NCBI GenBank assembly: GCA_964412025.1
Contig: CAYPLY010000001.1
Coordinates: forward strand, 134,922 to 198,921
Length of the DNA: 64,000 nucleotides
Origin: Candidatus Woesearchaeota archaeon
GTDB taxonomy: Archaea; Nanobdellota; Nanobdellia; Pacearchaeales; GW2011-AR1
Direction: 5' to 3'
The notes beneath the pieces are model-generated. The model saw only the letters and a list, made by a program, of their open reading frames with translations. It ran no database searches and was not told where the DNA came from. Below, in pieces: positions 8,881 through 61,890 of the stretch; within the stretch, counting starts at the first letter, position 1, and every line of letters starts with the position of its first letter. The translations under genes and the position numbers were made by a program.

Positions 8881-10055
8881 CTTTTTAGATATTCCATTTC
8901 TTCTTCATCTAGTTTAAGTTCTTTTGATATCAGAGGATTTGAATTTATTATTTGTTTTATTATTGGAAACTCCCTCATCGCTCTTTTTTGTCCAAGGTGA
9001 GAATATTGTGCATATTTTTCTGCAATTGATTTCTTTTTGGCGGTTCTTTGATTATTCATCCACATCTTTAATATTCTTGTTGGTTTCTTGTACGTTGTAA
9101 AACCCGGTTTGGATTTTGTTTTTGAAGAAGAAATTCCATAACTTAAAAATATATTTTCATAAACTAAAAATCTCCAATATTGTTGTTTGTATATTCTTCC
9201 TCTAAATACATCGGTTTTGCTTAATAAGTCATATGCTCTTGCTAGTTCTACTCCCTTATATTCTTGTGGAATATTTTCTTCTACCCACAATATTATTTCA
9301 TCTATGGGGGTTTTTACAGAGTCGAATATTTTTAGGGTTTCATCACTTGCTTTTTCTTTAAATATATATTTTAATGCGTTAAATATATCTACCTCTTTGT
9401 TTCTCTCATCAAAGTCTATACCTGTCAAATCCTTTAGTTTTGATATTGTTTGTAAATCATTTATTGCAGCTCTCAAATCCCCTTTTGATTTTACTGCTAT
9501 TCTTGTAAGAACTTCATCTTCTATAAACCCTTTTTCTTTTTTTATTATATCTGCGAGTACATCTTTTATTATTCTGTAATCTATATTTCTTAATTGAATT
9601 AGTTCTGCCTGCTTCCTTAGAGGATTTAAAGATTTATCCCATATATCGTTTGCAGTGACTATCACAGGATATTTAGAAGATTCAAGTAGTTCAACAAATT
9701 CTCCAAGTCCTCCCCTATCTACAGTTGATATCCCATCAACTTCATCAACCAGGATTATTTTTCCCTGATTTATTAATGATTTTTGTTCCATAGCTGGTCT
9801 TAAAACCTCTTCCAATCTTTTTTTGTCTCTTAAATCTGAGGCGTTCAGTTCAAAAATCTCCGAATTTGTTTCTTTTCCAATAACATGCGCTATTGTGGTC
9901 TTACCGGTTCCAGGAGGCCCATGTAGAACTATTGCTTTTTTTGAACCTTTTTTATTGAAATCCTCTAAGAATTTTCTAACTTTATCTATTACCTCATTCT
10001 GCCCCTTTATATCTCTAAAATTCTTTGGCCTATATTTTTCAACCCAGGGGCTCAT
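8877..10055 (-). CDS. rfcL: Replication factor C large subunit
   Basis: PWVEKYRPK, GPPGTGKT, ELNASD, DEVD, GDLRAAINDLQ. Confidence 0.92.
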   Translation of the reverse strand: MSPWVEKYRPKNFRDIKGQNEVIDKVRKFLEDFNKKGSKKAIVLHGPPGTGKTTIAHVIGKETNSEIFELNASDLRDKKRLEEVLRPAMEQKSLINQGKIILVDEVDGISTVDRGGLGEFVELLESSKYPVIVTANDIWDKSLNPLRKQAELIQLRNIDYRIIKDVLADIIKKEKGFIEDEVLTRIAVKSKGDLRAAINDLQTISKLKDLTGIDFDERNKEVDIFNALKYIFKEKASDETLKIFDSVKTPIDEIILWVEENIPQEYKGVELARAYDLLSKTDVFRGRIYKQQYWRFLVYENIFLSYGISSSKTKSKPGFTTYKKPTRILKMWMNNQRTAKKKSIAEKYAQYSHLGQKRAMREFPIIKQIINSNPLISKELKLDEEEMEYLKS

Positions 10056-53618: not shown

Positions 53619-54224
53619 TCACTTCTCCACAATAAAGTTAATCATCATTTCGCTATTGTGTGTTGAGAGAATTTTAAATCCTGTAGATTTGAATAATTTA
53701 TGTATTTCATCTTCTTCAAAAAGATAATAGTATCTTTCTCCCTTGTCAGTCCATTTTATTAGTTTTTCTTTTCCTTGTTTTTGGTTGAATCGTTTGGACT
53801 GGAAATTCCAAACTCCAATAAGTACTTTCCCTTTTTTCTTCATAACTCTGTATAATTCAGCAATTGCTTTTTTATGATATTCTGGAGGTAAGCAGTGAAG
53901 TGCAGATATTGAGATTGCGTAATCAAAAAAATTGTCTTTAAATGGTAAGTTTTTGGATATATCTGCAACTATAAATTCTCCAGGAACCTTTAATTTAGTT
54001 GCTTTCTTTTTTGCAAGTTTAATCATTTCTTCTGAAAAATCAACTAGATACATTTTCCCTCCTTTTATCTTTGTGAGGTGTCTTCCTGAACCAGATCCCA
54101 AATCTAAGACATTTCCTGTGCAACAGGTTAGGAATTCTTTGCTGAATTCTGAAGGGGTTTCTTTGAACTCATGCCATTCTTTTGCAATGTTGTTCCAGAC
54201 TTGTTGTTGAGTTGGAGTTTCCAT
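53619..54224 (-). CDS. Class I SAM-dependent methyltransferase
   Basis: VLDLGSGSGRH, VDFS, LPFKDNFFD, ALHCL. Confidence 0.88.
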   Translation of the reverse strand: METPTQQQVWNNIAKEWHEFKETPSEFSKEFLTCCTGNVLDLGSGSGRHLTKIKGGKMYLVDFSEEMIKLAKKKATKLKVPGEFIVADISKNLPFKDNFFDYAISISALHCLPPEYHKKAIAELYRVMKKKGKVLIGVWNFQSKRFNQKQGKEKLIKWTDKGERYYYLFEEDEIHKLFKSTGFKILSTHNSEMMINFIVEK

Positions 54225-54225
54225 T

Positions 54226-55053
54226 TTATAAGCTATCCAAGGGGGATTTTATCTTTGATAAATCTTTTGTGGATACATGTGTGTATACCTCAGTTGTTTT
54301 TAAATCAGAATGTCCTAGCAATTTTTGTATATGTCTTATATCTGTGCCCTGCTCTAATAAATGTGTTGCAAAACTATGCCTTAACATATGTGGAGTTGCT
54401 TTAATTCCTGCTTTTTTTCCAGCTTCATCCAAAACTTTCTGGACGGACTTTTTTGTGTATTTTCCATCACGTCCTTCAAAAACATATTCTGTGTGGAAAG
54501 TATTATTACTGTAGTATTTCAGTAAATCTAATTTTAATGCATCTGAAATAATAGTTACCCTATCCTTTTTCCCTTTTCCCTTTTTGACATTAAGAATATT
54601 TCTCTCAAAGTCAATATCTTTTCTCTTTAAATCAATTAGCTCCTGAAGCCTCAGTCCTGAAGAGTAAAGAAGTTTTATTATCAGTTTATGCTTTAAATTG
54701 TCTGTTAAATTAATCATTTCTTTAATTTTTTCTTTTGAGATAACTTTTGGAAGTTGTTTTTCTTTTTTCTTTATAGGAACTTCCTCAAATGAAAAAGATT
54801 TTCTTAATATCTCTCTGAAAAAGAAACTTATGGAGGCATACTGCAACCTTGAGGAGTTTATACTCAAATTTTGTGATAATAAATATAATTTAACACTGTC
54901 ATTTGATAGATTAAGTCTACTTTTGGAAAGAAAATCTAAAAATTTTCCTGTGTGATATACATAAGATTTGATTGTTTGGTTAGAAAATCCCTTTAAAATA
55001 CATGTTTCTTTTAGTTTTTTTAGATATTCTTCTTTATCTGAAGTATAATTCAT
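54226..55053 (-). CDS. Tyrosine recombinase, XerA/integron-integrase-like, 275 aa
   Basis: N-terminal GFSNQTIKSY SAM-like domain; catalytic R (GLRLQE), K (KGKKDR), HxxR (HMLRHSFATH), H (LGH), Y (EVYTHV). Confidence 0.95.
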   Translation of the reverse strand: MNYTSDKEEYLKKLKETCILKGFSNQTIKSYVYHTGKFLDFLSKSRLNLSNDSVKLYLLSQNLSINSSRLQYASISFFFREILRKSFSFEEVPIKKKEKQLPKVISKEKIKEMINLTDNLKHKLIIKLLYSSGLRLQELIDLKRKDIDFERNILNVKKGKGKKDRVTIISDALKLDLLKYYSNNTFHTEYVFEGRDGKYTKKSVQKVLDEAGKKAGIKATPHMLRHSFATHLLEQGTDIRHIQKLLGHSDLKTTEVYTHVSTKDLSKIKSPLDSL

Positions 55054-55093
55054 AAAGGAACTTTAACTTCATTTTATTTAAAGATATATGTGT

Positions 55094-55121
55094 AAGATAA
55101 TAACCTTTGGGTTATAATCTA
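55094..55121. promoter_or_regulatory. 11-6-11 inverted-repeat site AAGATAATAAC-CTTTGG-GTTATAATCTA (putative recombinase binding site)
   Basis: Arms 9/11 complementary; 41 bp upstream of the recombinase ATG. Confidence 0.6.
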
Positions 55122-55128
55122 CTTTTCA

Positions 55129-55156
55129 AGTAGATATAATAGATGTTATATTCAAT
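55129..55156 (+). other. dif/attI-like recombination junction AGTAGATATAA-TAGATG-TTATATTCAAT (left cassette boundary)
   Basis: TATAA-N6-TTATA core of Xer-type sites; GATGTTAT repeated at the right boundary (59070-59077). Confidence 0.75.
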
Positions 55157-55293
55157 TTTTGGATTACTCAAGACGGAAAAGAGAGAGGGGCTTAGTCCTT
55201 CGGACATTTTGCCTTTTACTTCGTAAAAGAATTTATAGGAAGGAGCGTCAAGATAGTCTTTTTCTACGAAAAAGAAATTTACTAGGTGGCGTC
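55156..55293 (-). repeat. Structured GACGC-hairpin repeat element after the M1 stop codon (inverted homolog of 58696-58849)
   Basis: Shared AGTAATCCAAAAA (13 bp), GCCCCTCTCTC (11 bp), GACGC units with T/A-rich hairpins, GTCC-TTCG-GAC. Confidence 0.75.
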
Positions 55294-56079
55294 TTAACAA
55301 TAATCCTTTAATTTAGTATTCTTTTTATGTTTACTTATTCTTTTATTCGCTAACTCGATGTATTCCTTATTATTATCTATGCCAATCCAATTTCGATTTA
55401 ATTGCATGGATGCCAAAGCAGTTGTTCCACTTCCCATAAAGGGGTCAATAACAATGTCTCCTTCATCTGTTGCCATCTCAATTAATCTTGTAAATAATTC
55501 TAAGGGTTTTTGAGTTGGATGTGCTGCTCTCCCATTTTCTCCTTTAATTCTTTCAGAACCTTGACAAACTGGAAACTCCCAAACATCTTTTAACTGCTTA
55601 CCTTGATTATACTTTTTCATATTGTTATAATTAAATTTCCATCCTTTCCCCTTTGCAAACCATGCAATAAATTCCGTAGAATGAGTTAATGTTCTTTTCG
55701 TAATACTTGGCATAGGATTTGTTTTTCTCCATGTTATCAGATTAATAAATTTGTATCCTTTATCTTTTAAAGCTACAATTACTTCTCCTATATTATGTAA
55801 AGAACCACAAACCATCATCGAACCATTTGGAGCAAGAATCTTATCAGCCTCATCAATCCATTTTTTTGTAAAGTCCATATAATCTTCATAAGAGAATTTA
55901 TCCCATTTTTCATTTACTTTGTAATATGCTCCACCTGTTTTATTATCTGGCAGATTTACTCCACCATTTGATGCATTATATGGTGGGTCAGTTAATACTA
56001 AATGAATTTTTCCTTTAGGAAAATCCCCCATTATCTTTATACAATCTCCTTCATGATTTTTATTTATTACATTATTCAT
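55294..56079 (-). CDS. N6A/N4C DNA methyltransferase, beta class (M1)
   Basis: TDPPY, HPTQKP, DPFMGSGTT in beta-class order. Confidence 0.93.
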   Translation of the reverse strand: MNNVINKNHEGDCIKIMGDFPKGKIHLVLTDPPYNASNGGVNLPDNKTGGAYYKVNEKWDKFSYEDYMDFTKKWIDEADKILAPNGSMMVCGSLHNIGEVIVALKDKGYKFINLITWRKTNPMPSITKRTLTHSTEFIAWFAKGKGWKFNYNNMKKYNQGKQLKDVWEFPVCQGSERIKGENGRAAHPTQKPLELFTRLIEMATDEGDIVIDPFMGSGTTALASMQLNRNWIGIDNNKEYIELANKRISKHKKNTKLKDYC

Positions 56080-57908
56080 GCTAAAATACCTTCTTTTTCA
56101 TATTTTTGAAGAATTGTATTAGATTTTCTCGCCCAATCATCAACATCTTTGGAATCTATTGCGACATTATGTAGTGTTAATAATAATTCTTTAAACTCGT
56201 TATGAGTAATTGGTTTATTTTCTAATTTTTTTATTAACACTCTTTTTAATATTTTTAAAAATTGAGTTATGCTCAGAGGAATTATTTTTTGTTTTTCTCC
56301 CTCATACTCATATTTGTTTGAAAAGCTAAATGTGTTAAAAGTATCTCTGTGAATTCTTGGGGCAATAAACAAACAAAAAGAATTATCATTATTTTTAATT
56401 TCAAAATCTCTTAAATGCCTCATAACTGGTTGTCCTTCATTAATCCATTGACTTCTACTTACTAACATAGTAACTTCACAAATCATATTGAAAGATTCAT
56501 AAACACATTCTATATCTGGAACATTGGCTGGTGCTGTAAAAGTTGGTCTGTTATCATCTCCTACAGGATAATTAGGCTGTATTTTCAAGGCGTCATTAAT
56601 CGCATGTAAGCATAACGTTGTTAGGTGTTCTAGTTCTATTGATTGGCTTTTATCACTTCCATGAATATTTTCAAGAGTTTTGATTACTTCCTTAAAATTA
56701 TCAGCATTAGCTAATTCTGTATGATTAATATACTCCTGCACTCTTCGCCTAAGAATTCTTAAATCTGCCATTATTGGTTTTAATTCATTAACTCTCAATG
56801 ATTCAATGTTTACTTCAAATAATTTTTTCTCTAAAGTTAATGGTTTGCTTAGAGATTTGTTTAATTCAAATATTTCTTTTCTAAGGTTCACAATAATATT
56901 TTTTAATTTGTCTTGTGTATCCCATGGATAGATTACATCAGAATCCATATAATCAAGGTATTCCTCAAGAGTTTTGAATTTCAAACCTTCACCATTACTA
57001 TATTCCAGAAGAGAGGTTATTTCAACATTTCTTCTCGGTTCTAAATCAATATAGAAACCACCACCACGAATATAAAAGAATCTTGTTATCTTAAAATATC
57101 GGATTGCATTATCACCATAATCTTTTAAATTATGAAAGTTTATATCGAGATGTTTTCCTTCGGGATCTTCAAAGAATTTTTTAGTTTTATCTGTAAAACA
57201 ATCTTTTTTTATTGCAGTTTGTTCTTTTTTGTCTTTACCTTTTAATTTATTTCTTAATGCAATAATTTCATTAACTGTTTTAGGGATGTCATCATAATTA
57301 ATTGTAGTTGGCACAAAATAACAAAATTCATGTTTAGAAATTCCGACAGGTTCATTCCCTAATTTTTTCCATTTCTTGTTTACTTCATTGATAATATGAA
57401 GAGTTGTAATAAATGGTCTTACATTAAAACCATTTTTTTCAGAAAACTCTTCATTATCTGGATTTGGTAAAGTCCATTTAAAGAAATATTCTAAGAAAAT
57501 TTCTCCCATGTCGAAATCTTTTTGTAAAAATTTCTTTCCAAAATTTGTGATGTATAGTTTACTTACTGTTTGTTTAGATACAACCAAACCCATTTTACTA
57601 AGCGGGGCAATAGATGTCCTTCCTCTTAGCCCAGGGTCATCTTTTAAAACAGTAGATTTTTCTTTCATATGTTCAAAAATTTCTTTTGCTTCTTTTTCTG
57701 ACATATCAGAAGGAGAATTATAATAGCCCGATAATTTTTCATTAAGGCCTGTTGGTTTATACAGCTTTCTTTTAATCAATGCTATTTGAAATTTTATCTG
57801 TTGATTCTCATTAAATTCAACACCCTCAAAATCTTTAAGAACTTCCAAAAACCCCCTAATTCTATCGGGATTTCTTACAGTAGTTGAAATTGACCATGCT
57901 CTTTTCAT
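56076..57908 (-). CDS. AlwI-family type IIS restriction endonuclease
   Basis: WSISTTVRNPDRI N-terminus, DYGDNAIRYF, APANVPDIE...EVT, EGQPVMRH, FIAP; flanked by two MTases. Confidence 0.8.
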   Translation of the reverse strand: MKRAWSISTTVRNPDRIRGFLEVLKDFEGVEFNENQQIKFQIALIKRKLYKPTGLNEKLSGYYNSPSDMSEKEAKEIFEHMKEKSTVLKDDPGLRGRTSIAPLSKMGLVVSKQTVSKLYITNFGKKFLQKDFDMGEIFLEYFFKWTLPNPDNEEFSEKNGFNVRPFITTLHIINEVNKKWKKLGNEPVGISKHEFCYFVPTTINYDDIPKTVNEIIALRNKLKGKDKKEQTAIKKDCFTDKTKKFFEDPEGKHLDINFHNLKDYGDNAIRYFKITRFFYIRGGGFYIDLEPRRNVEITSLLEYSNGEGLKFKTLEEYLDYMDSDVIYPWDTQDKLKNIIVNLRKEIFELNKSLSKPLTLEKKLFEVNIESLRVNELKPIMADLRILRRRVQEYINHTELANADNFKEVIKTLENIHGSDKSQSIELEHLTTLCLHAINDALKIQPNYPVGDDNRPTFTAPANVPDIECVYESFNMICEVTMLVSRSQWINEGQPVMRHLRDFEIKNNDNSFCLFIAPRIHRDTFNTFSFSNKYEYEGEKQKIIPLSITQFLKILKRVLIKKLENKPITHNEFKELLLTLHNVAIDSKDVDDWARKSNTILQKYEKEGILA

Positions 57909-57977
57909 AATATTTTACCCCTCATACTATCTTAAAAGCCAACATATTTAAATATTATGCGTTTTAGGGGTTATATT

Positions 57978-58697
57978 ATGGCAAAAAAGAATGTTGATTT
58001 GAAAAAAGGGGAATGTGTAAGTATTCTTAAGAAAATGCCAGACAATTCCGTAGATATGATATTTGCAGACCCTCCTTATAATCTTTCTGGAAAAAATCAT
58101 ATTACTTGTGTTAATGGAAGAAAAGTAAAATGTGATAAAGGTATTTGGGACATGGTCGCAGATATTGATAAATTTAATTATGATTGGATAAAAGAGTGTA
58201 TGCGTGTTCTAAAGGATGATGGAACTATCTGGATTTCAGGAACATTACATAACCATCCTTCTGTTGGCTTTTTACTTAAAAAAATGGGATACTGGATAAT
58301 AAATGATATTGTTTGGTTTAAACCAAATGCTCCCCCTCAATTACAACCTAATAGACTTGCTCCATCTACCGAGATGATTTGGTTAGCGAGTAAGACAAAA
58401 AAATATTATTTTGATTATAAAAAAGCAAAGGAAATTAATGACGGAAAACAAATGAGAAACCTTTGGACTATTAATGCTCAAAGACATATCACAAATCACC
58501 CTACTGAAAAGCCAGAACTTCTTTTAGAAAGGATAATTCTTCTTGGAAGTAAAGAAGGCGATGTTATCTTAGATCCTTTTATGGGTTCAGGAACAACAGG
58601 AGCAGTCGCTAAAAAGTTAAATAGAAGTTTTATAGGGATTGAACTTGACGATGAATTCTTTGAAATTGCAAAAGATAGAATAAATAATACTAAATGA
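57978..58697 (+). CDS. N6A/N4C DNA methyltransferase, beta class (M2)
   Basis: FADPPY, HPTEKP, DPFMGSGTT; ATG 57978. Confidence 0.93.
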   Translation: MAKKNVDLKKGECVSILKKMPDNSVDMIFADPPYNLSGKNHITCVNGRKVKCDKGIWDMVADIDKFNYDWIKECMRVLKDDGTIWISGTLHNHPSVGFLLKKMGYWIINDIVWFKPNAPPQLQPNRLAPSTEMIWLASKTKKYYFDYKKAKEINDGKQMRNLWTINAQRHITNHPTEKPELLLERIILLGSKEGDVILDPFMGSGTTGAVAKKLNRSFIGIELDDEFFEIAKDRINNTK

Positions 58698-58849
58698 CGC
58701 CCCTAAATGTTCTTTTTAGAAAAGAACCAAAACAAGACGCCCCTTCTATCTTCTTTTTTAGAAAAAAGAAGCAAAAAATCTGACGCCCCTCTCTCGTCCT
58801 TCGGACATATTCACTCGCCTTTGGCTCGAATTTATCAGTAATCCAAAAA
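58696..58849 (+). repeat. Three GACGCCCC units (58696, 58736, 58782) with intervening hairpins, after the M2 stop codon
   Basis: Hairpins GTTCTTTT/AAAAGAAC and CTTCTTTTT/AAAAAGAAG; TTCG-loop hairpin at 58796. Confidence 0.8.
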
Positions 58850-58909
58850 CTCTAAAATTTTGCCTTCGGCATCGTTGCACTAAATTTTAGGTCTTCCCGT
58901 TGGTCAGAC

Positions 58910-59080
58910 GAATATAACAGGGCTTAACCGACTACGAAACCTTGCAGGTTTCTCCGTCCAAATTTTGCCCCATCTCTGAAAAAATTCTCAGCTCTGTTTC
59001 GGTTTTGTGGGTTGCCTCAAAACCTCACGAGGAGAATTTTTTCGAGGGGTCAAAACTTCGTTTAAGCCCGATGTTATGTG
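58910..59080 (+). other. attC-like ssDNA hairpin recombination site (~170 nt)
   Basis: ATAAC/GTTAT outer stem, GGGCTTAA/TTAAGCCC, TTTTGCCCC/GGGG-T-CAAAA with an extrahelical T, GAAAAAATTCTC/GAGAATTTTTTC, GGTTTTG/CAAAACC. Confidence 0.78.
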
Positions 59081-59110
59081 CAATCTAGAAATATCTTGTT
59101 TATTCAATCA

Positions 59111-60388
59111 TCATTCTCCCTCAAACTTAATAAGGCTAAAGAAAGGATATTTTGAAATCTTTTCTTTTCCTTTTAATTCCGGAAGTTCCATAACAAACAT
59201 ACACCCAATAATTTGTCCCCCTACTTTTTCAATAAGGTTTACAGCTGCTTTAACTGTTCCACCTGTTGCAATTAAATCGTCAACAAGTAATACTTTTTGT
59301 CCTGGTTTTATAGAGTCTTTATGTATTTCAACTGCATCCTCTCCATACTCCAAAGAATAACTTTCTTTTACTGTTTCGTAGGGTAATTTTCCTGGCTTTC
59401 TTATTAAAGCTAATCCTGCATTTAACTTTTCAGCTAAAAGGCCTGCAATGATAAAACCCCTTGATTCAATTCCTGCAACTATATCTATTGGTATTTCATA
59501 ACATTTTTCGTAAAGTATTTCTGTAAGTTTTTTAAGAGATTCTCTATCTTGAAGGAGAGGAGTCACATCTTTAAACATAATTCCTTCTTTTGGAAAGTTT
59601 GGAATTGTACGTACTTTTTCTTTTAGTTTTTGAATTTCTTGTTCTCTTGAAAAAGAGTTTATCGCATCAAAAATAACTTTTTTGACACGTTCAGCATTTT
59701 CCTTCATATTATTTTTTATTGTTAACCAATCTACTGGTTCTTCATCTTCTTTCCAGCAGTCATAATCCGTTGACATTGCTATTGTTGCATATTGTACTTC
59801 TGCCTCGTTTGCAAGAATGGCTTCAGGAGATGTAGACATATTTATTATATCTCCTCCCCATTGTCTGAAAAGGTGGCTTTCTGCTTTGGTTGAGAATCTT
59901 GGCCCTTCTATTGTTATAACTGTTCCAGTTTTATGGTATGAGAATTTTAATTTTTCACAGCTTTCAGTTAGCTTTTTTCTTAATTCTTCCGAAAAAGGAT
60001 TTGCCATGGGAGTGTGGATTGGACCAAATTCAAACTTATCAAAAAAGGTTAGTTTTCTGTTTTTTGTAAAATCAATAAATTGATCTGGAATAATAAAATC
60101 TCCTCTCTTTATTTCTTCTCTAAGTGAGCCCGCGGCTGTTGTTGAGATTATAAATTTACAACCTTCATTTTTTAGTGCAAATATATTTGCACGATTGTTT
60201 ACTTCTGTTGGAGGGATTTCATGTTTTATCCCATGCCTTGAAATTATAAAGACATCTATGCTCCCTATCTTTCCAATTGTCAATGGAGAAGATGGTTTTC
60301 CAAAAGGGGTTTCTACTTCTTTTGTTTTGTAATCTGTAAGAATCTCTGGATTCTCAAGCCCAGAACCACCTATTATACCAATTTTCAT
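59111..60388 (-). CDS. Fused methylthioadenosine phosphorylase (MTAP) - adenine phosphoribosyltransferase (APRT)
   Basis: IGIIGGSG, RHG, IEGPRFSTKAES, TDYD, then PNFPKEGIMFKD, GIESRGF, RKPGKLP, LLVDDLIATGGT; ATG 60388. Confidence 0.92.
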   Translation of the reverse strand: MKIGIIGGSGLENPEILTDYKTKEVETPFGKPSSPLTIGKIGSIDVFIISRHGIKHEIPPTEVNNRANIFALKNEGCKFIISTTAAGSLREEIKRGDFIIPDQFIDFTKNRKLTFFDKFEFGPIHTPMANPFSEELRKKLTESCEKLKFSYHKTGTVITIEGPRFSTKAESHLFRQWGGDIINMSTSPEAILANEAEVQYATIAMSTDYDCWKEDEEPVDWLTIKNNMKENAERVKKVIFDAINSFSREQEIQKLKEKVRTIPNFPKEGIMFKDVTPLLQDRESLKKLTEILYEKCYEIPIDIVAGIESRGFIIAGLLAEKLNAGLALIRKPGKLPYETVKESYSLEYGEDAVEIHKDSIKPGQKVLLVDDLIATGGTVKAAVNLIEKVGGQIIGCMFVMELPELKGKEKISKYPFFSLIKFEGE

Positions 60389-60441
60389 AATAAATATTGG
60401 AGAGGAAAAGATTTTATAAGTATTTTTGTAATGAAAGATAC

Positions 60442-61890
60442 ATGTTAAACCCATCGAAAAATGAGGTTCGTAAACCTACAAAAACAATCTCAGGTATAAC
60501 TCCTGTAGCAGTTATGTTGCCTCCTAGAAAATGCAAGCATGGTAATTGTATTTATTGCCCTTCAATGGATGTCCCCCAAAGTTATACCCCAAAAAGTCCT
60601 GTTGTGTTAAGGGCTAAATCTCTGGATTATAATTCTTACAAACAGGTTGTTTCTCGTCTTAAGGCATTTGAAGTTATGAATCATCCAACTGAAAAAATTG
60701 AGTTGATAATTATGGGAGGAACTTTTTTGGAATATCCTGAAAAATTTCAGTACAAATTTATAAAAGGATTGTATGATGGATTAAATGGTAAGGTTTCTAA
60801 TAATCTGAGCGAGGCAAAAAAATTAAATGAAAATTCAAAACATAGATGTGTTGCGCTTTGTATTGAAACTAGGCCAGATGTTTGTTGTGAATTTATCTCA
60901 AGAATGAGAGAATTTGGATGTACAAGGGTGGAGTTGGGTGTGCAATTAATAGATGATAAAGTGTATAAATTTGTAAAAAGAGGACATCTAGTTAAAGATG
61001 TTGTTTTAGCTACAAAATGTTTGAGAGATGCAGGTTTTAAGATAGGTTATCATTTAATGCCTGGGCTTCCTGGAAGTAATTTAAAGAAAGATTTGGAATT
61101 ATTTAAGAAGATTTTTTCTGATGAAAGATTTAAACCCGATCAGATTAAAATTTATCCTTGTCAAGTATTGCCCAATTCTGAACTTGAAAAAATTTATTGG
61201 GAAGGAAAATACAAACCTTATACTCCGGAGGAGATTCAGAAACTTTTAGTTAGTATGTTAAAAGTTATTCCAAGATATTGTAGGGTAATGAGGATTATGA
61301 GAGAAATTCCATTGGAATATTTAATTGCTGGAAGCAAAGATATTGGAATAAGGAAAGATGTTGAAGATGAGTTAAGAAAAGAAAAAGTTAAATTGAAAGA
61401 AATTAGATATAGAGAGGTTGGTTTTAATAAAGAAGGAATGAATTTAGATTTGAAATTAAAAGCAACCCCTTATAAAGCTTCAGGAGGAAAAGAGTATTTT
61501 TTGGAGATTGTTAATAAAGATAATGTGCTTTTTGGGTTACTTCGTTTGAGAATAGTTAGCAGTAATCTCGTTAAGAGGGGTTCGAGGAGTAATAAGCTTG
61601 GTTCAACGGGTAATAAGCTGAAAACTGTTGTTACAGATAATAAAATAGGATTAGTAAGAGAACTGCATGTTTATGGGCAGAGTTTGAAATTGGGAGAACT
61701 TGGAAAAGTTGGTCAACACACTGGTTTGGGAAAATGGTTAATGGAGGAAGCTGAAAAAATTGCGAAAAAAGAAAAATGCTCTGAGATTAAAGTGATTTCA
61801 GGAGTGGGGGTTAGGGAGTATTACAGGAAGTTAGGTTATGAATTGGAGAAAGGAAAAGGTAAAGGAGAATATATGAGAAAGCTTTTATAG
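60442..61890 (+). CDS. elp3: Elp3 tRNA wobble-uridine acetyltransferase (radical SAM plus GNAT)
   Basis: CKHGNCIYCP, MGGTF, ETRPD, VELGVQ, RELHVYG, QHTGLG, ISGVGVREYY. Confidence 0.94.
   Translation: MLNPSKNEVRKPTKTISGITPVAVMLPPRKCKHGNCIYCPSMDVPQSYTPKSPVVLRAKSLDYNSYKQVVSRLKAFEVMNHPTEKIELIIMGGTFLEYPEKFQYKFIKGLYDGLNGKVSNNLSEAKKLNENSKHRCVALCIETRPDVCCEFISRMREFGCTRVELGVQLIDDKVYKFVKRGHLVKDVVLATKCLRDAGFKIGYHLMPGLPGSNLKKDLELFKKIFSDERFKPDQIKIYPCQVLPNSELEKIYWEGKYKPYTPEEIQKLLVSMLKVIPRYCRVMRIMREIPLEYLIAGSKDIGIRKDVEDELRKEKVKLKEIRYREVGFNKEGMNLDLKLKATPYKASGGKEYFLEIVNKDNVLFGLLRLRIVSSNLVKRGSRSNKLGSTGNKLKTVVTDNKIGLVRELHVYGQSLKLGELGKVGQHTGLGKWLMEEAEKIAKKEKCSEIKVISGVGVREYYRKLGYELEKGKGKGEYMRKLL

Follow-up and report, generated by a model that had tools for sequence, protein, structure and literature searches.

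Integron integrases (IntI) are thought to descend from Xer-like recombinases, and the additional domain that distinguishes them, which reads extrahelical bases through helix I2, is held to be necessary for recombining folded attC sites. XerA belongs to the family that unlinks chromosome dimers, and P. abyssi XerA recombines duplex dif in vitro without partners (PMC2958812). Between these two activities lie integrative mobile elements exploiting Xer (IMEX), among which CTXphi uses a folded single-strand hairpin that mimics dif, plus a single strand exchange finished by replication (PMC3442271). In archaea, IntIs with the additional domain exist, although most archaeal arrays are attC clusters with no integrase gene (CALINs), and only 6 IntIs were found in 75 integron-bearing archaeal genomes (PMC9668308). 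No system has been described in which a plain Xer enzyme runs a multi-cassette array, and literature searches on XerA in DPANN, archaeal IMEX and CPR integrons found no prior description.

A 64,000-nt stretch of a DPANN archaeon (Candidatus Woesearchaeota archaeon, GCA_964412025.1, contig CAYPLY010000001.1, positions 134,922 to 198,921; hereafter the window) provided an opportunity to examine such a possibility. A first-pass annotation of the sequence had described a tyrosine recombinase that lacks the IntI-specific insertion yet sits next to an attC-like substrate, and had proposed that the enzyme handles single-stranded hairpins in another way or represents a XerA-to-IntI intermediate. The observation proved correct, save that the attC-like site is not directly adjacent to the gene, and the interpretation is supported only in part.

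Family assignment of the recombinase

The recombinase gene is intact, with an ATG start. In the 275-aa product KGKKDR ends at residue 165 and HMLRH starts at residue 222, leaving 56 residues between them, and no RKYP, KYP, RRHH or RHH string is present; GFSNQTIKSY, which the first-pass annotation had likened to the SAM-like domain of IntI/XerA, occupies residues 22-31. The catalytic positions are R135, a lysine in KGKGKKDR (158-165), H222, R225, H248 and Y257, and these align colinearly with P. abyssi XerA (4a8e), the best solved relative by sequence (1e-47). Pfam profiles matched Phage_integrase at residues 104-262 (6.9e-40) and Phage_int_SAM_4 at residues 11-85 (1.5e-8). Three comparisons confirm absence of the IntI insertion: (i) the match to VchIntIA (2a3v) splits into query 9-173/chain 4-173 and query 204-274/chain 247-319, such that IntI has about 43 extra residues there, (ii) the match to the IntI profile TIGR02249 is also split in two, and (iii) the AF2 model has only two predicted helices (171-183 and 201-214) between the β-hairpin and the HxxR helix, with XerA structures aligned by Foldseek in 270-277 columns and IntI in about 319. 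The predicted fold matches 5hxy and 4a8e.

By curated family profiles the protein is a divergent archaeal XerA, passing the NF040815 (XerA_Arch) cut-off marginally (224.9 bits against 220), and not an IntI, with scores of 203.6 against 265 for TIGR02249 and 120.7 against 435 for NF011946, each split in two stretches. Validated XerAs score 303-323 on the XerA model, about 80-100 bits higher than the window protein. However, the protein leans toward IntI more than these validated XerAs do: the IntI model ranks second for it (185 bits over the region compared), but below XerC/XerD for the P. abyssi and T. acidophilum XerAs. The suggestion of an intermediate is not supported as a family of its own, since the curated test places the protein within XerA.

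The attachment site and cassette junctions

What lies next to the gene is a conserved, duplex, dif-like 11-6-11 site, 76-103 bp upstream of xerA, rather than an attC (Table 1). The sequence AACATnTATTAnnnCTACT lies about 95 nt upstream of the ATG in 16 of 16 exact-pattern loci, and is visible in about 24 aligned relatives. The arms of the 28-bp site are symmetric at 8/11 positions, and the site is 16-18/28 identical to E. coli dif; only 6 of about 128,000 28-mers in the window reach 18. The near-perfect palindrome that overlaps it was considered as the true dif, but was rejected as the crossover site because its xerA-proximal arm is missing in several relatives, while AACATnTATTAnnnCTACT is invariant and all junctions fall at AAC. 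Some XerA relatives at 42-44% identity (loci L033, a complete genome, L030 and L026) show no such upstream site. GC skew showed no clear turning point within the window, and does not locate a terminus there.

Table 1. Coordinates of the xerA locus and the adjoining cassette within the 64-kb window; a slash marks the crossover.
Position	Strand	Feature	Details
54226-55053	-	xerA	275-aa tyrosine recombinase, R-K-H-R-H-Y complete, no IntI-specific insertion
55075-55082	-	TATA-box-like motif	TTTAAATA, about 22-29 nt upstream of the xerA ATG, conserved in relatives; promoter role inferred
55100-55115		Short hairpin	ATAACC-TTTG-GGTTAT, between the site and the promoter; a hairpin is kept at this position in relatives with different sequence
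55112-55139		Near-perfect palindrome	TTATAATCTACT-TTTCA-AGTAGATATAA; inverted extra copy ("arm 3") of the right arm of the core site; in most but not all relatives; possibly an accessory binding site
55129-55156	-	attI/dif-like core site	xerA-sense strand ATTGAATATAA-CATCTA-TTATATCTACT (11-6-11); crossover at AA/C (G55145/T55146 on + strand); right part invariant in relatives, left arm supplied by the cassette
55146-59073	+	Inserted cassette	3,928 bp, bounded by direct repeats ATTGnnnATAACAT (55143-55156 and 59071-59084, both minus strand)
55146-55293		xerA-proximal non-coding end of the cassette	Imperfect inverted repeat of 58698-58903 (e.g. AGTAATCCAAAAA, 55156-55168(-)/58837-58849(+))
55294-56079	-	DNA methyltransferase M1	N6_N4_Mtase, 3.9e-62
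56076-57908	-	AlwI-family type IIS restriction endonuclease	RE_AlwI, 5.9e-87
57957-58697	+	DNA methyltransferase M2	N6_N4_Mtase, 1.3e-58
58698-58903		Distal non-coding module	Three GACGCCCCT+hairpin units; pairs with 55146-55293 in the (inferred) circularised form
58904-59088	-	attC-like site	On + strand: R'' GAATATAAC 58912-58920; L'' GGGCTTAAC 58922-58930; variable region with AAATTTGG motif; L' GTTTAAGCCC 59056-59065; GAT; R' G/TTATGTGC from 59073
59074-59084	-	Left arm of the original (pre-insertion) site	ATTGCACATAA, now at the far junction; locus L007 carries the same arm on an apparently unoccupied site

The core site is the fixed edge of a variable region. Gene-order comparison at 70-85% XerA identity was uninformative because both flanks differ, and we therefore compared contigs encoding an identical XerA, which are identical to the right of the triplet AAC (GTT on the other strand) and unrelated to its left, with at least 4 left flanks for the XerA designated P0004, 2 for P0069 and 2 for P0030. 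Specifically, locus L178 differs from locus L179 by a 2,245-bp MjaI restriction-modification cassette, with only AAC shared at the junction and central regions of CACCTA versus CGTTTG, which argues against a two-strand exchange needing spacer homology. A further comparison, of L197 and L194 with L192, found no shared upstream DNA and no simple excision pair. It is possible that nothing is mobile, and that the variation comes from homologous recombination or assembly errors around structured intergenic repeats acting as terminators or small RNAs: the hairpins lie at gene ends, metagenome assemblies break at repeats, and several contigs start exactly at AACAT. This appears most unlikely, however, given that the junctions are base-exact, with no flanking homology, in independent assemblies from different projects.

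In the window, a single AlwI-type restriction-modification cassette lies between the core site and an attC-like imperfect hairpin 3.85 kb from the gene. The sequence ATTGNNNATAACAT occurs exactly twice in the window, on the same strand, bracketing the restriction-modification genes (0.07 expected by chance; 0 of 100 shuffles reach 2), and attR keeps the 11-6-11 site. The same AlwI module occurs in other contigs, with homology ending exactly at AAC and at other array positions, although contigs carrying the homologous cassette show no xerA within reach. The GC-richer 130 nt at 55167-55296, the likeliest basis for the attC-like substrate of the first-pass annotation, does not fold better than shuffles on its own (RNA parameters, z -0.8 to -0.9), nor does 55054-55300; it is one half of a long inverted repeat whose partner is the distal module. 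This stretch and the 58697-59110 spacer were first taken for a non-coding RNA, but Rfam searches returned nothing at gathering or E-value thresholds, and both turned out to be cassette ends.

Hairpin covariation, array polarity and the candidate mobilising enzyme

To probe the attC-like site further, we evaluated its folding, covariation and distribution. The hairpin folds as single-stranded DNA at -43.1 kcal/mol (z -7.7), and the whole 524-nt non-coding junction folds at -116 kcal/mol, against -51 ± 5 kcal/mol for shuffles. Across 24 sites, of which 20 were not used for training, 88.5% of cells were paired and 11 of 16 pairs were compensatory, whereas 0 of 500 shuffles were as good and slid controls reached at most 51%. 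Part of this pairing signal is circular, because the first sites were picked by a parser that demanded an 8-bp stem and the alignment was fitted to the model. A covariance model of the hairpin found 38 copies in 56 related archaeal loci (406 kb), all on the xerA strand and all but one upstream of xerA, in arrays of up to six (L025) and five (L005) sites. It gave one hit in the window with filters off (80 bits), and none in 13 viral control loci. Scanning viral contigs with the 15-base core gave only chance hits, the best of which (L062) is a higher-GC phage with no xerA, and a scan with the attC 5′ motif gave none, so there is no evidence that viruses carry these sites. The same architecture occurs beside XerA-like genes in CPR bacteria.

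The cassette ends are also related to one another: GTTN6 beside a cassette's start is the reverse complement of N6AAC at its own end, 0.5-6.8 kb away, with zero mismatches in 12 of 18 cassettes and at most one in 14 of 18, against a background of 27 of 576. One case is a TAC/GTA compensatory variant. Four of the 18 pairs have two or more mismatches, and the CPR locus L037 breaks the order. This rule, which is the logic of integron cassettes, cannot arise from terminators.

These features bear on whether XerA might move the cassettes as duplex DNA, as in classical IMEX or plasmid pdif modules, with the palindrome serving as two inverted duplex binding sites or as a regulatory or terminator structure; the hairpin could also act as RNA. 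In favour of a duplex reaction, the core geometry is that of a normal 11-6-11 Xer site, XerA lacks the IntI hairpin-reading domain, P. abyssi XerA acts on duplex dif, and attL and attR in the window share 8 nt (ATAACATC), enough for one exchange. However, partners elsewhere share as little as AAC and have unrelated central regions, crossovers always use the 5′ copy that carries the TC bulge and never the inverted 3′ copy, and a duplex-only site needs neither the compensatory covariation over stems 60-150 nt apart nor the 9-nt R-box complementarity kept across each cassette. We consider a duplex-only reaction unlikely, though the least unlikely of the alternatives.

Alternatively, the protein may be an ordinary XerA used only for chromosome dimer resolution, with the cassettes moved by a canonical IntI encoded elsewhere or supplied in trans, and the arrays merely sitting by dif. 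The marginal pass on the XerA profile and the prevalence of archaeal CALINs, including those in Pace-/Woesearchaeales MAGs, one of which is another contig of the same MAG as the xerA locus L004, are consistent with this possibility. A canonical IntI in the genome had been named beforehand as the condition that would overturn the first-pass interpretation; no other tyrosine recombinase is present in the window, which, as 64 kb of a 203-kb contig, cannot exclude an IntI or another mobilising enzyme elsewhere. Nevertheless, the arrays begin at a site conserved together with xerA, at fixed distance and orientation, across XerAs of 42-95% identity and in CPR bacteria, the cassette R arm plus CATC copies the left half of that Xer-type site, and genomes of this kind are small. 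The fixed association with xerA in dozens of assemblies argues against an IntI elsewhere, and we regard this reading as unlikely. A further alternative, that the cassettes are non-autonomous single-strand transposons (IS200/IS605-like, PATE-type) mobilised by an HUH (Y1) transposase and inserted 3′ of an AAC that happens to lie in the dif-like site, would account for the subterminal hairpins, insertion immediately 3′ of a short fixed sequence, no target duplication beyond AAC, and an element end that recreates the target. It is very unlikely, as all 38 archaeal sites are on the xerA strand and all but one lie upstream of xerA, with none scattered elsewhere in the 406 kb and only one in the 64-kb window, the target context is a full Xer-type core, the start/end complementarity and R/L-box layout match attC and not IS608 guide sequences, and no transposase was seen in any cassette.

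Interpretation and comparison with described systems

Taken together, we favour, with moderate confidence, a Xer-run, integron-like cassette platform, in which a divergent archaeal XerA has a putative cognate 28-bp dif-like site directly upstream of its gene that also serves as the primary (attI-like) attachment site. In this view, gene cassettes with no recombinase of their own carry a long imperfect palindrome that, when one strand folds, rebuilds a Xer-type core with an R arm ending in TAA/C, a short central region with a two-base bulge (TC), and an L arm. XerA bound to the folded xerA-sense strand and to the duplex site would exchange one pair of strands at AA/C (G/TT), and replication would then resolve the junction, leaving the cassette next to xerA and regenerating a dif-like site, such that repetition would build co-oriented arrays. 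The circular junction would read AAATTGAATATAAC/ATCGGGCTTAAACG and the empty site ATTGCACATAAC/ATCTATTATATC, although no circular junction was sought successfully. The sequence comparisons establish the site, the exact junctions, presence/absence polymorphism, hairpin covariation, array polarity and the start/end complementarity of each cassette; in the absence of biochemical or read-level evidence, it remains an inference, drawn from adjacency, site anatomy, covariation and junction anatomy, that XerA is the catalyst, that the substrate is single-stranded, that only one strand pair is exchanged, and that the site also resolves chromosome dimers. Because XerA lacks the domain used by IntI, hairpin recognition would need another solution.

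More tentatively, and somewhat less likely than not, DPANN archaea and CPR bacteria may carry a "Xer-integron", in which a XerA-type recombinase without the IntI domain recombines folded single-strand attC-like hairpins at its own dif site, which doubles as attI. This would be a living link between Xer/IMEX recombination and integrons. If XerA does this, the additional domain is not a prerequisite for cassette capture, the origin of integrons and of attC sites becomes experimentally approachable with one small enzyme and defined sites, and the many archaeal attC clusters without an integrase would have a candidate enzyme. It would also show how ultra-small, host-dependent cells swap defence and accessory genes at one chromosomal address, which is probably also needed for chromosome segregation.

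The locus resembles bacterial integrons in that the recombinase gene is adjacent to and divergent from a primary site, the array is co-oriented, each cassette ends in an imperfect palindrome with R and L boxes, a bulged central part and a variable loop, the crossover falls at G/TT, the start of each cassette is complementary to its own R'' box, a new cassette enters next to the platform (L178 versus L179), and the cargo is mixed (restriction-modification systems, GNAT, hydrolases and many unknowns). It differs in the XerA-type recombinase, in the dif-like primary site, and in hairpin cores of 88-190 nt, extended to about 520 nt of palindrome in the window, against 57-141 nt. Of the canonical attC consensus (RYYYAAC...GTTRRRY) only AAC/GTT fit, the R boxes being like ATATAAC/GTTATAT with the consensus (A)ATTnnnnnTAAC. 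In addition, the bulge sits next to the cleavage point, and cassettes are often multi-gene and in either orientation, unlike typical integron cassettes. For archaeal integrons, attC clusters were reported in GTDB Nanoarchaeota (Pacearchaeales, Woesearchaeales), mostly without an integrase, including the MAG that also holds L004; that work defined integrases by the IntI additional domain and did not link arrays to XerA or to a dif-like site (PMC9668308).

Like IMEX (CTXphi, TLCphi, VGJphi, the gonococcal island, and LME-1/XerL in Legionella; PMC9765430), the elements have no integrase, insert at a dif-like site, regenerate it and so stack in tandem; here, however, they are small gene cassettes without replication or packaging genes, every one carries a homologous structured site, and the setting is archaea and CPR with a single XerA. 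Single-recombinase Xer systems (XerS/difSL, XerH/difH and XerL) similarly place the site immediately beside the gene (PMC5357621, PMC9765430), but are bacterial and not known as multi-cassette platforms. Archaeal XerA/dif of P. abyssi and T. acidophilum belongs to the same family by HMM and fold, with, as here, an 11-6-11 inverted repeat sharing 14-18 of 28 positions with bacterial dif (PMC2958812), yet in Thermococcales the XerA dif is not next to xerA (PMC2958812), and the site described here abuts a cassette array. Finally, Acinetobacter pdif modules are likewise discrete gene modules bounded by Xer-type sites, but lie on plasmids between inverted pdif pairs, with XerC and XerD, and form no platform-anchored array and have no hairpin covariation.

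The xerA gene product

The first-pass annotation was correct in its observation: the ORF it described is present at exactly the position it gave, with 56 residues between KGKKDR and HMLRH and without any RKYP- or RRHH-type string. The catalytic set is complete, comprising R135, a lysine in the KGKGKKDR hairpin, H222, R225, H248 and Y257, and Pfam profiles identify Phage_integrase (6.9e-40) and the SAM-like N-terminal domain (1.5e-8). Absence of the IntI insertion was confirmed in three ways. Specifically, the match to Vibrio IntI (2a3v) breaks into two pieces that skip about 43 IntI residues, the TIGR02249 match is split in the same way, and an AlphaFold model (pLDDT 79.8) has only two helices in that interval, with Foldseek aligning XerA structures colinearly (270-277 columns) and IntI with about 44 extra columns.

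Among the NCBIfam models, the archaeal XerA equivalog is the best match, although the protein only just passes it (224.9 bits, cut-off 220), whereas the integron-integrase models fail (203.6 vs 265; 120.7 vs 435). The best solved relative by sequence is P. abyssi XerA (1e-47). Homologues of 70-95% identity, nearly all 275 aa long, are abundant in Pacearchaeota, Woesearchaeota and 'Nanoarchaeota' assemblies, and the window is from a DPANN archaeon (GC about 30%, archaeal-type ThrRS). To evaluate divergence from validated enzymes, fragments of the P. abyssi and T. acidophilum XerAs were rebuilt from the structure-database alignments and scored over the region compared. For the two validated XerAs, XerC/D rank above IntI, but for the window protein IntI ranks second, indicating a divergent XerA. 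No other tyrosine recombinase is detectable in the 64 kb. In many relatives (L178, L001, L003, L006 and L022; L-numbers denote the contig loci compared), a family B DNA polymerase gene (about 820 aa) starts 2 nt after xerA, a place held by a SAM methyltransferase in the window and its closest relatives.

Profile scores (bits) of the window protein and two validated XerAs over the region compared
Protein	XerA model	XerD	XerC	IntI model
P. abyssi XerA	322.6	228	214	167
T. acidophilum XerA	303	201	201	178
Window protein	225.6	163	174	185

Locations of the features in the window and in related loci
Feature	Position	Strand	Remarks
SAM methyltransferase	53619-54224		immediately downstream of xerA
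xerA	54226-55053	-	275 aa
dif-like core site	55156 down to 55129	xerA-sense	ATTGAATATAA-CATCTA-TTATATCTACT (11-6-11)
ATTGNNNATAACAT, two copies	55143-55156 and 59071-59084	-	bracket the cassette
R' of the circularised cassette	55145-55153		GTTATATTC
Cassette	55146-59073		3,928 bp
Repeated units of GACGCC(C/A)CC	55200-55293 and 58698-58800		each followed by a short A/T-rich hairpin
attC-like imperfect hairpin	58904-59088		last about 170 nt of the cassette
Unpaired loop motif AAATTTGG(G)	about 58965-58972		variable loop of the hairpin
PNP_UDP_1-phosphoribosyltransferase fusion	59111-60454	-	purine/MTA phosphorylase domain; gene just beyond the array
Synthetase cassette	L179:3499-4910		also in L178, L180, L183, L184
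TAC/GTA cassette	L005:3604-4750		
CPR hairpin sites	L037:2026-6013		Candidatus Andersenbacteria
Truncated xerA-like ORF and attC-like site	L024:5977-6642 and 9031-9129		221 aa; site 2.4 kb downstream
AlwI cassette end	L206:5362-5420		

A variable junction at the dif-like site

Alignment of the DNA upstream of xerA from about 24 related genomes revealed the invariant motif AACATnTATTAnnnCTACT about 95 nt before the ATG, usually followed by an inverted copy of the last arm. In the window this corresponds to a Xer-type core with arms that are 8/11 symmetric. The core shares 16-18 of 28 positions with E. coli dif, a level of 18 being reached by only 6 of about 128,000 28-mers in the window, and is within the range reported for archaeal dif sites (PMC2958812). 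A structural break at this point was first suggested by several independent contigs that begin exactly at AACAT. Many metagenome contigs (contig starts of L006, L013, L016 and L021; also L193, L195 and L198-L200) end within about 100-350 nt upstream of xerA, and the platform is a systematic assembly breakpoint in these genomes.

To probe this break further, we compared contigs that encode an identical XerA protein. To the right of the triplet AAC, through xerA and beyond, these contigs are identical, whereas to the left they are unrelated, with at least four different left flanks for one protein (P0004) and two each for two others. In the clearest pair, L178 differs from L179 only by a 2,245-bp insertion carrying an MjaI-type restriction-modification system at the position nearest xerA. 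The only sequence shared at the two junctions is AAC, and the central regions of the two partners are unrelated (CACCTA vs CGTTTG).

In the window, ATTGNNNATAACAT occurs exactly twice in 64 kb, both on the minus strand (expected number 0.07; 0 of 100 shuffles reach two), and brackets two N6/N4 methyltransferases, an AlwI-family endonuclease and flanking non-coding DNA. The far junction keeps the left arm ATTGCACATAA, and the relative L007 shows the same arm on an apparently unoccupied site. The end of the cassette forms an imperfect hairpin when folded as single-stranded DNA (-43.1 kcal/mol, z = -7.7, 0 of 200 shuffles as good). On the + strand it reads R'' GAATATAAC, L'' GGGCTTAAC, a variable region, L' GTTTAAGCCC, GAT, then G·TT, where the dot marks the junction. 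In the circularised cassette, R' would be a perfect partner for R'', and all 524 nt of the cassette's non-coding DNA then fold into one long imperfect hairpin (-116 kcal/mol against -51 +/- 5 for shuffles), which explains the inverted repeats at the two ends. The repeated GACGCC(C/A)CC units begin directly after the stop codons of both methyltransferase genes and face outward from the restriction-modification genes, and they may also act as transcription terminators.

Cassette sites across related loci

To evaluate generality, a simple parser asked whether a cassette's own end (N6AAC) is complementary to a GTTN6 lying beside an 8-bp stem near its start. Cassettes were recovered in seven of about fifteen loci with enough upstream DNA, at a measured false-positive rate of 3.1%. 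The hits share features that the parser did not ask for: (A)ATT at -13 to -11, ATC after the junction, GAAGTT, AAATTTGG in the loop, and T before GTT. The unpaired AAATTTGG(G) motif is conserved in the middle of almost all attC-like sites, between two sub-hairpins. A covariance model built from ten sites gave one hit in the window with filters off, no hits in 13 viral control loci, and 38 hits in 56 archaeal loci (406 kb), all on the xerA strand and all but one upstream of xerA, with arrays of six (L025) and five (L005). The single exception lies in L024, downstream of a second, truncated xerA-like ORF in a MAG that already has a full xerA (L009).

On 24 aligned sites, 20 of them not used for training, the basal helix is 88.5% paired, with compensatory changes at 11 of 16 pairs. 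No shuffle out of 500 does as well, and slid controls reach at most 51%, with the caveat that the alignment is fitted to the model. In addition, a two-base bulge (TC or TT) directly after AAC-A is conserved on the xerA-sense strand, while the opposite side has only T.

The strongest single test was provided by 18 consecutive pairs of sites, in which the GTTN6 beside a cassette's start was compared with the reverse complement of the N6AAC at that cassette's own end, 0.5-6.8 kb away. Zero mismatches were found in 12 pairs, and at most one in 14, against an all-against-all background of 27 of 576. This is the footprint that integron cassettes leave, because they are cut within R'. One cassette in L005 has TAC at its end instead of the otherwise invariant AAC, with GTA instead of GTT at its start, a compensatory change in the triplet that holds the crossover point.

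The AlwI module recurs at 76-95% identity in many metagenome contigs. Homology to the window stops exactly at the cassette's AAC in one contig (L206), the cassette can be followed by another cassette (L204), and it can also be part of a 6.8-kb cassette that obeys the start/end complementarity perfectly (L207). In L206 the cassette end ...ATTGAATATAAC is followed by GATGTTAG..., which looks like the opposite-strand form of a junction (GAT·GTT) and may be a junction between inverted sites. Other cassettes encode a GNAT acetyltransferase, an alpha/beta hydrolase, an aldehyde dehydrogenase, an NTPase, SAM methyltransferases, an HD protein, a nucleotidyltransferase-like protein, a class I aminoacyl-tRNA synthetase, a RelA/SpoT-domain protein and many proteins with no family, and none encodes a recombinase. 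The synthetase (377 aa, tRNA-synt_1b) is a housekeeping-type gene inside a putatively mobile cassette that obeys the start/end complementarity perfectly (GTTAGTAGA and TCTACTAAC).

The upstream site is also seen with XerAs of only 42-55% identity (L027, L031 and L039), but not in L033, L030 or L026. The covariance model additionally hits upstream of XerA-like genes (37-45% identity), on the same strand, in CPR bacteria (L037, L041 and L035), with four sites in an Andersenbacteria contig, one in a Magasanikbacteria contig and one in L035, a contig binned as Pseudomonadales. Here the junction is AAC·GTT(T/C) instead of AAC·ATC. In L037 the most distal site pairs with the arm at the platform rather than with its neighbour, so the order rule is broken there.

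Inferred mechanism and relation to integrons and IMEX

The sequence comparisons establish a dif-like site tied to xerA, base-exact junctions at AA·C (= G·TT), insertion at the xerA-proximal position, co-oriented arrays, hairpin covariation and the start/end complementarity of each cassette. Beyond this, the mechanism is inferred. That XerA is the catalyst rests on adjacency, co-conservation and the Xer-type geometry of both partners. That the cassette partner is a folded single strand rests on covariation over 60-150 nt, on the bulge that marks one strand, and on crossovers using only one of the two inverted half-sites. Exchange of only one strand pair, with replication finishing the job, is inferred from the lack of central-region homology, by analogy with integron attI x attC recombination and CTXphi integration (PMC3442271), and a further role of the site in dimer resolution is likewise an inference. 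The first-pass interpretation, in which this enzyme may handle single-stranded hairpins in another way than IntI or represent a XerA-to-IntI intermediate, was supported in large part, though the protein is formally a XerA and the catalysis is unproven.

Archaeal integrons have been reported, with only six IntIs, all with the additional domain, and most arrays had no integrase gene (CALINs, clusters of attC sites lacking an integrase). These included Pace- and Woesearchaeales MAGs, and another contig of the very MAG that holds one of the xerA loci studied here, L004 (PMC9668308). Our literature searches returned no paper linking such arrays to XerA or to a dif-like site. The present system works like an integron and like an IMEX array at once, but it is not a member of the IntI family, because the defining domain was tested and is absent. 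Overall, we regard it as an integron/IMEX-type platform that differs from these known systems in being run, on the inferred mechanism, by a plain Xer recombinase.
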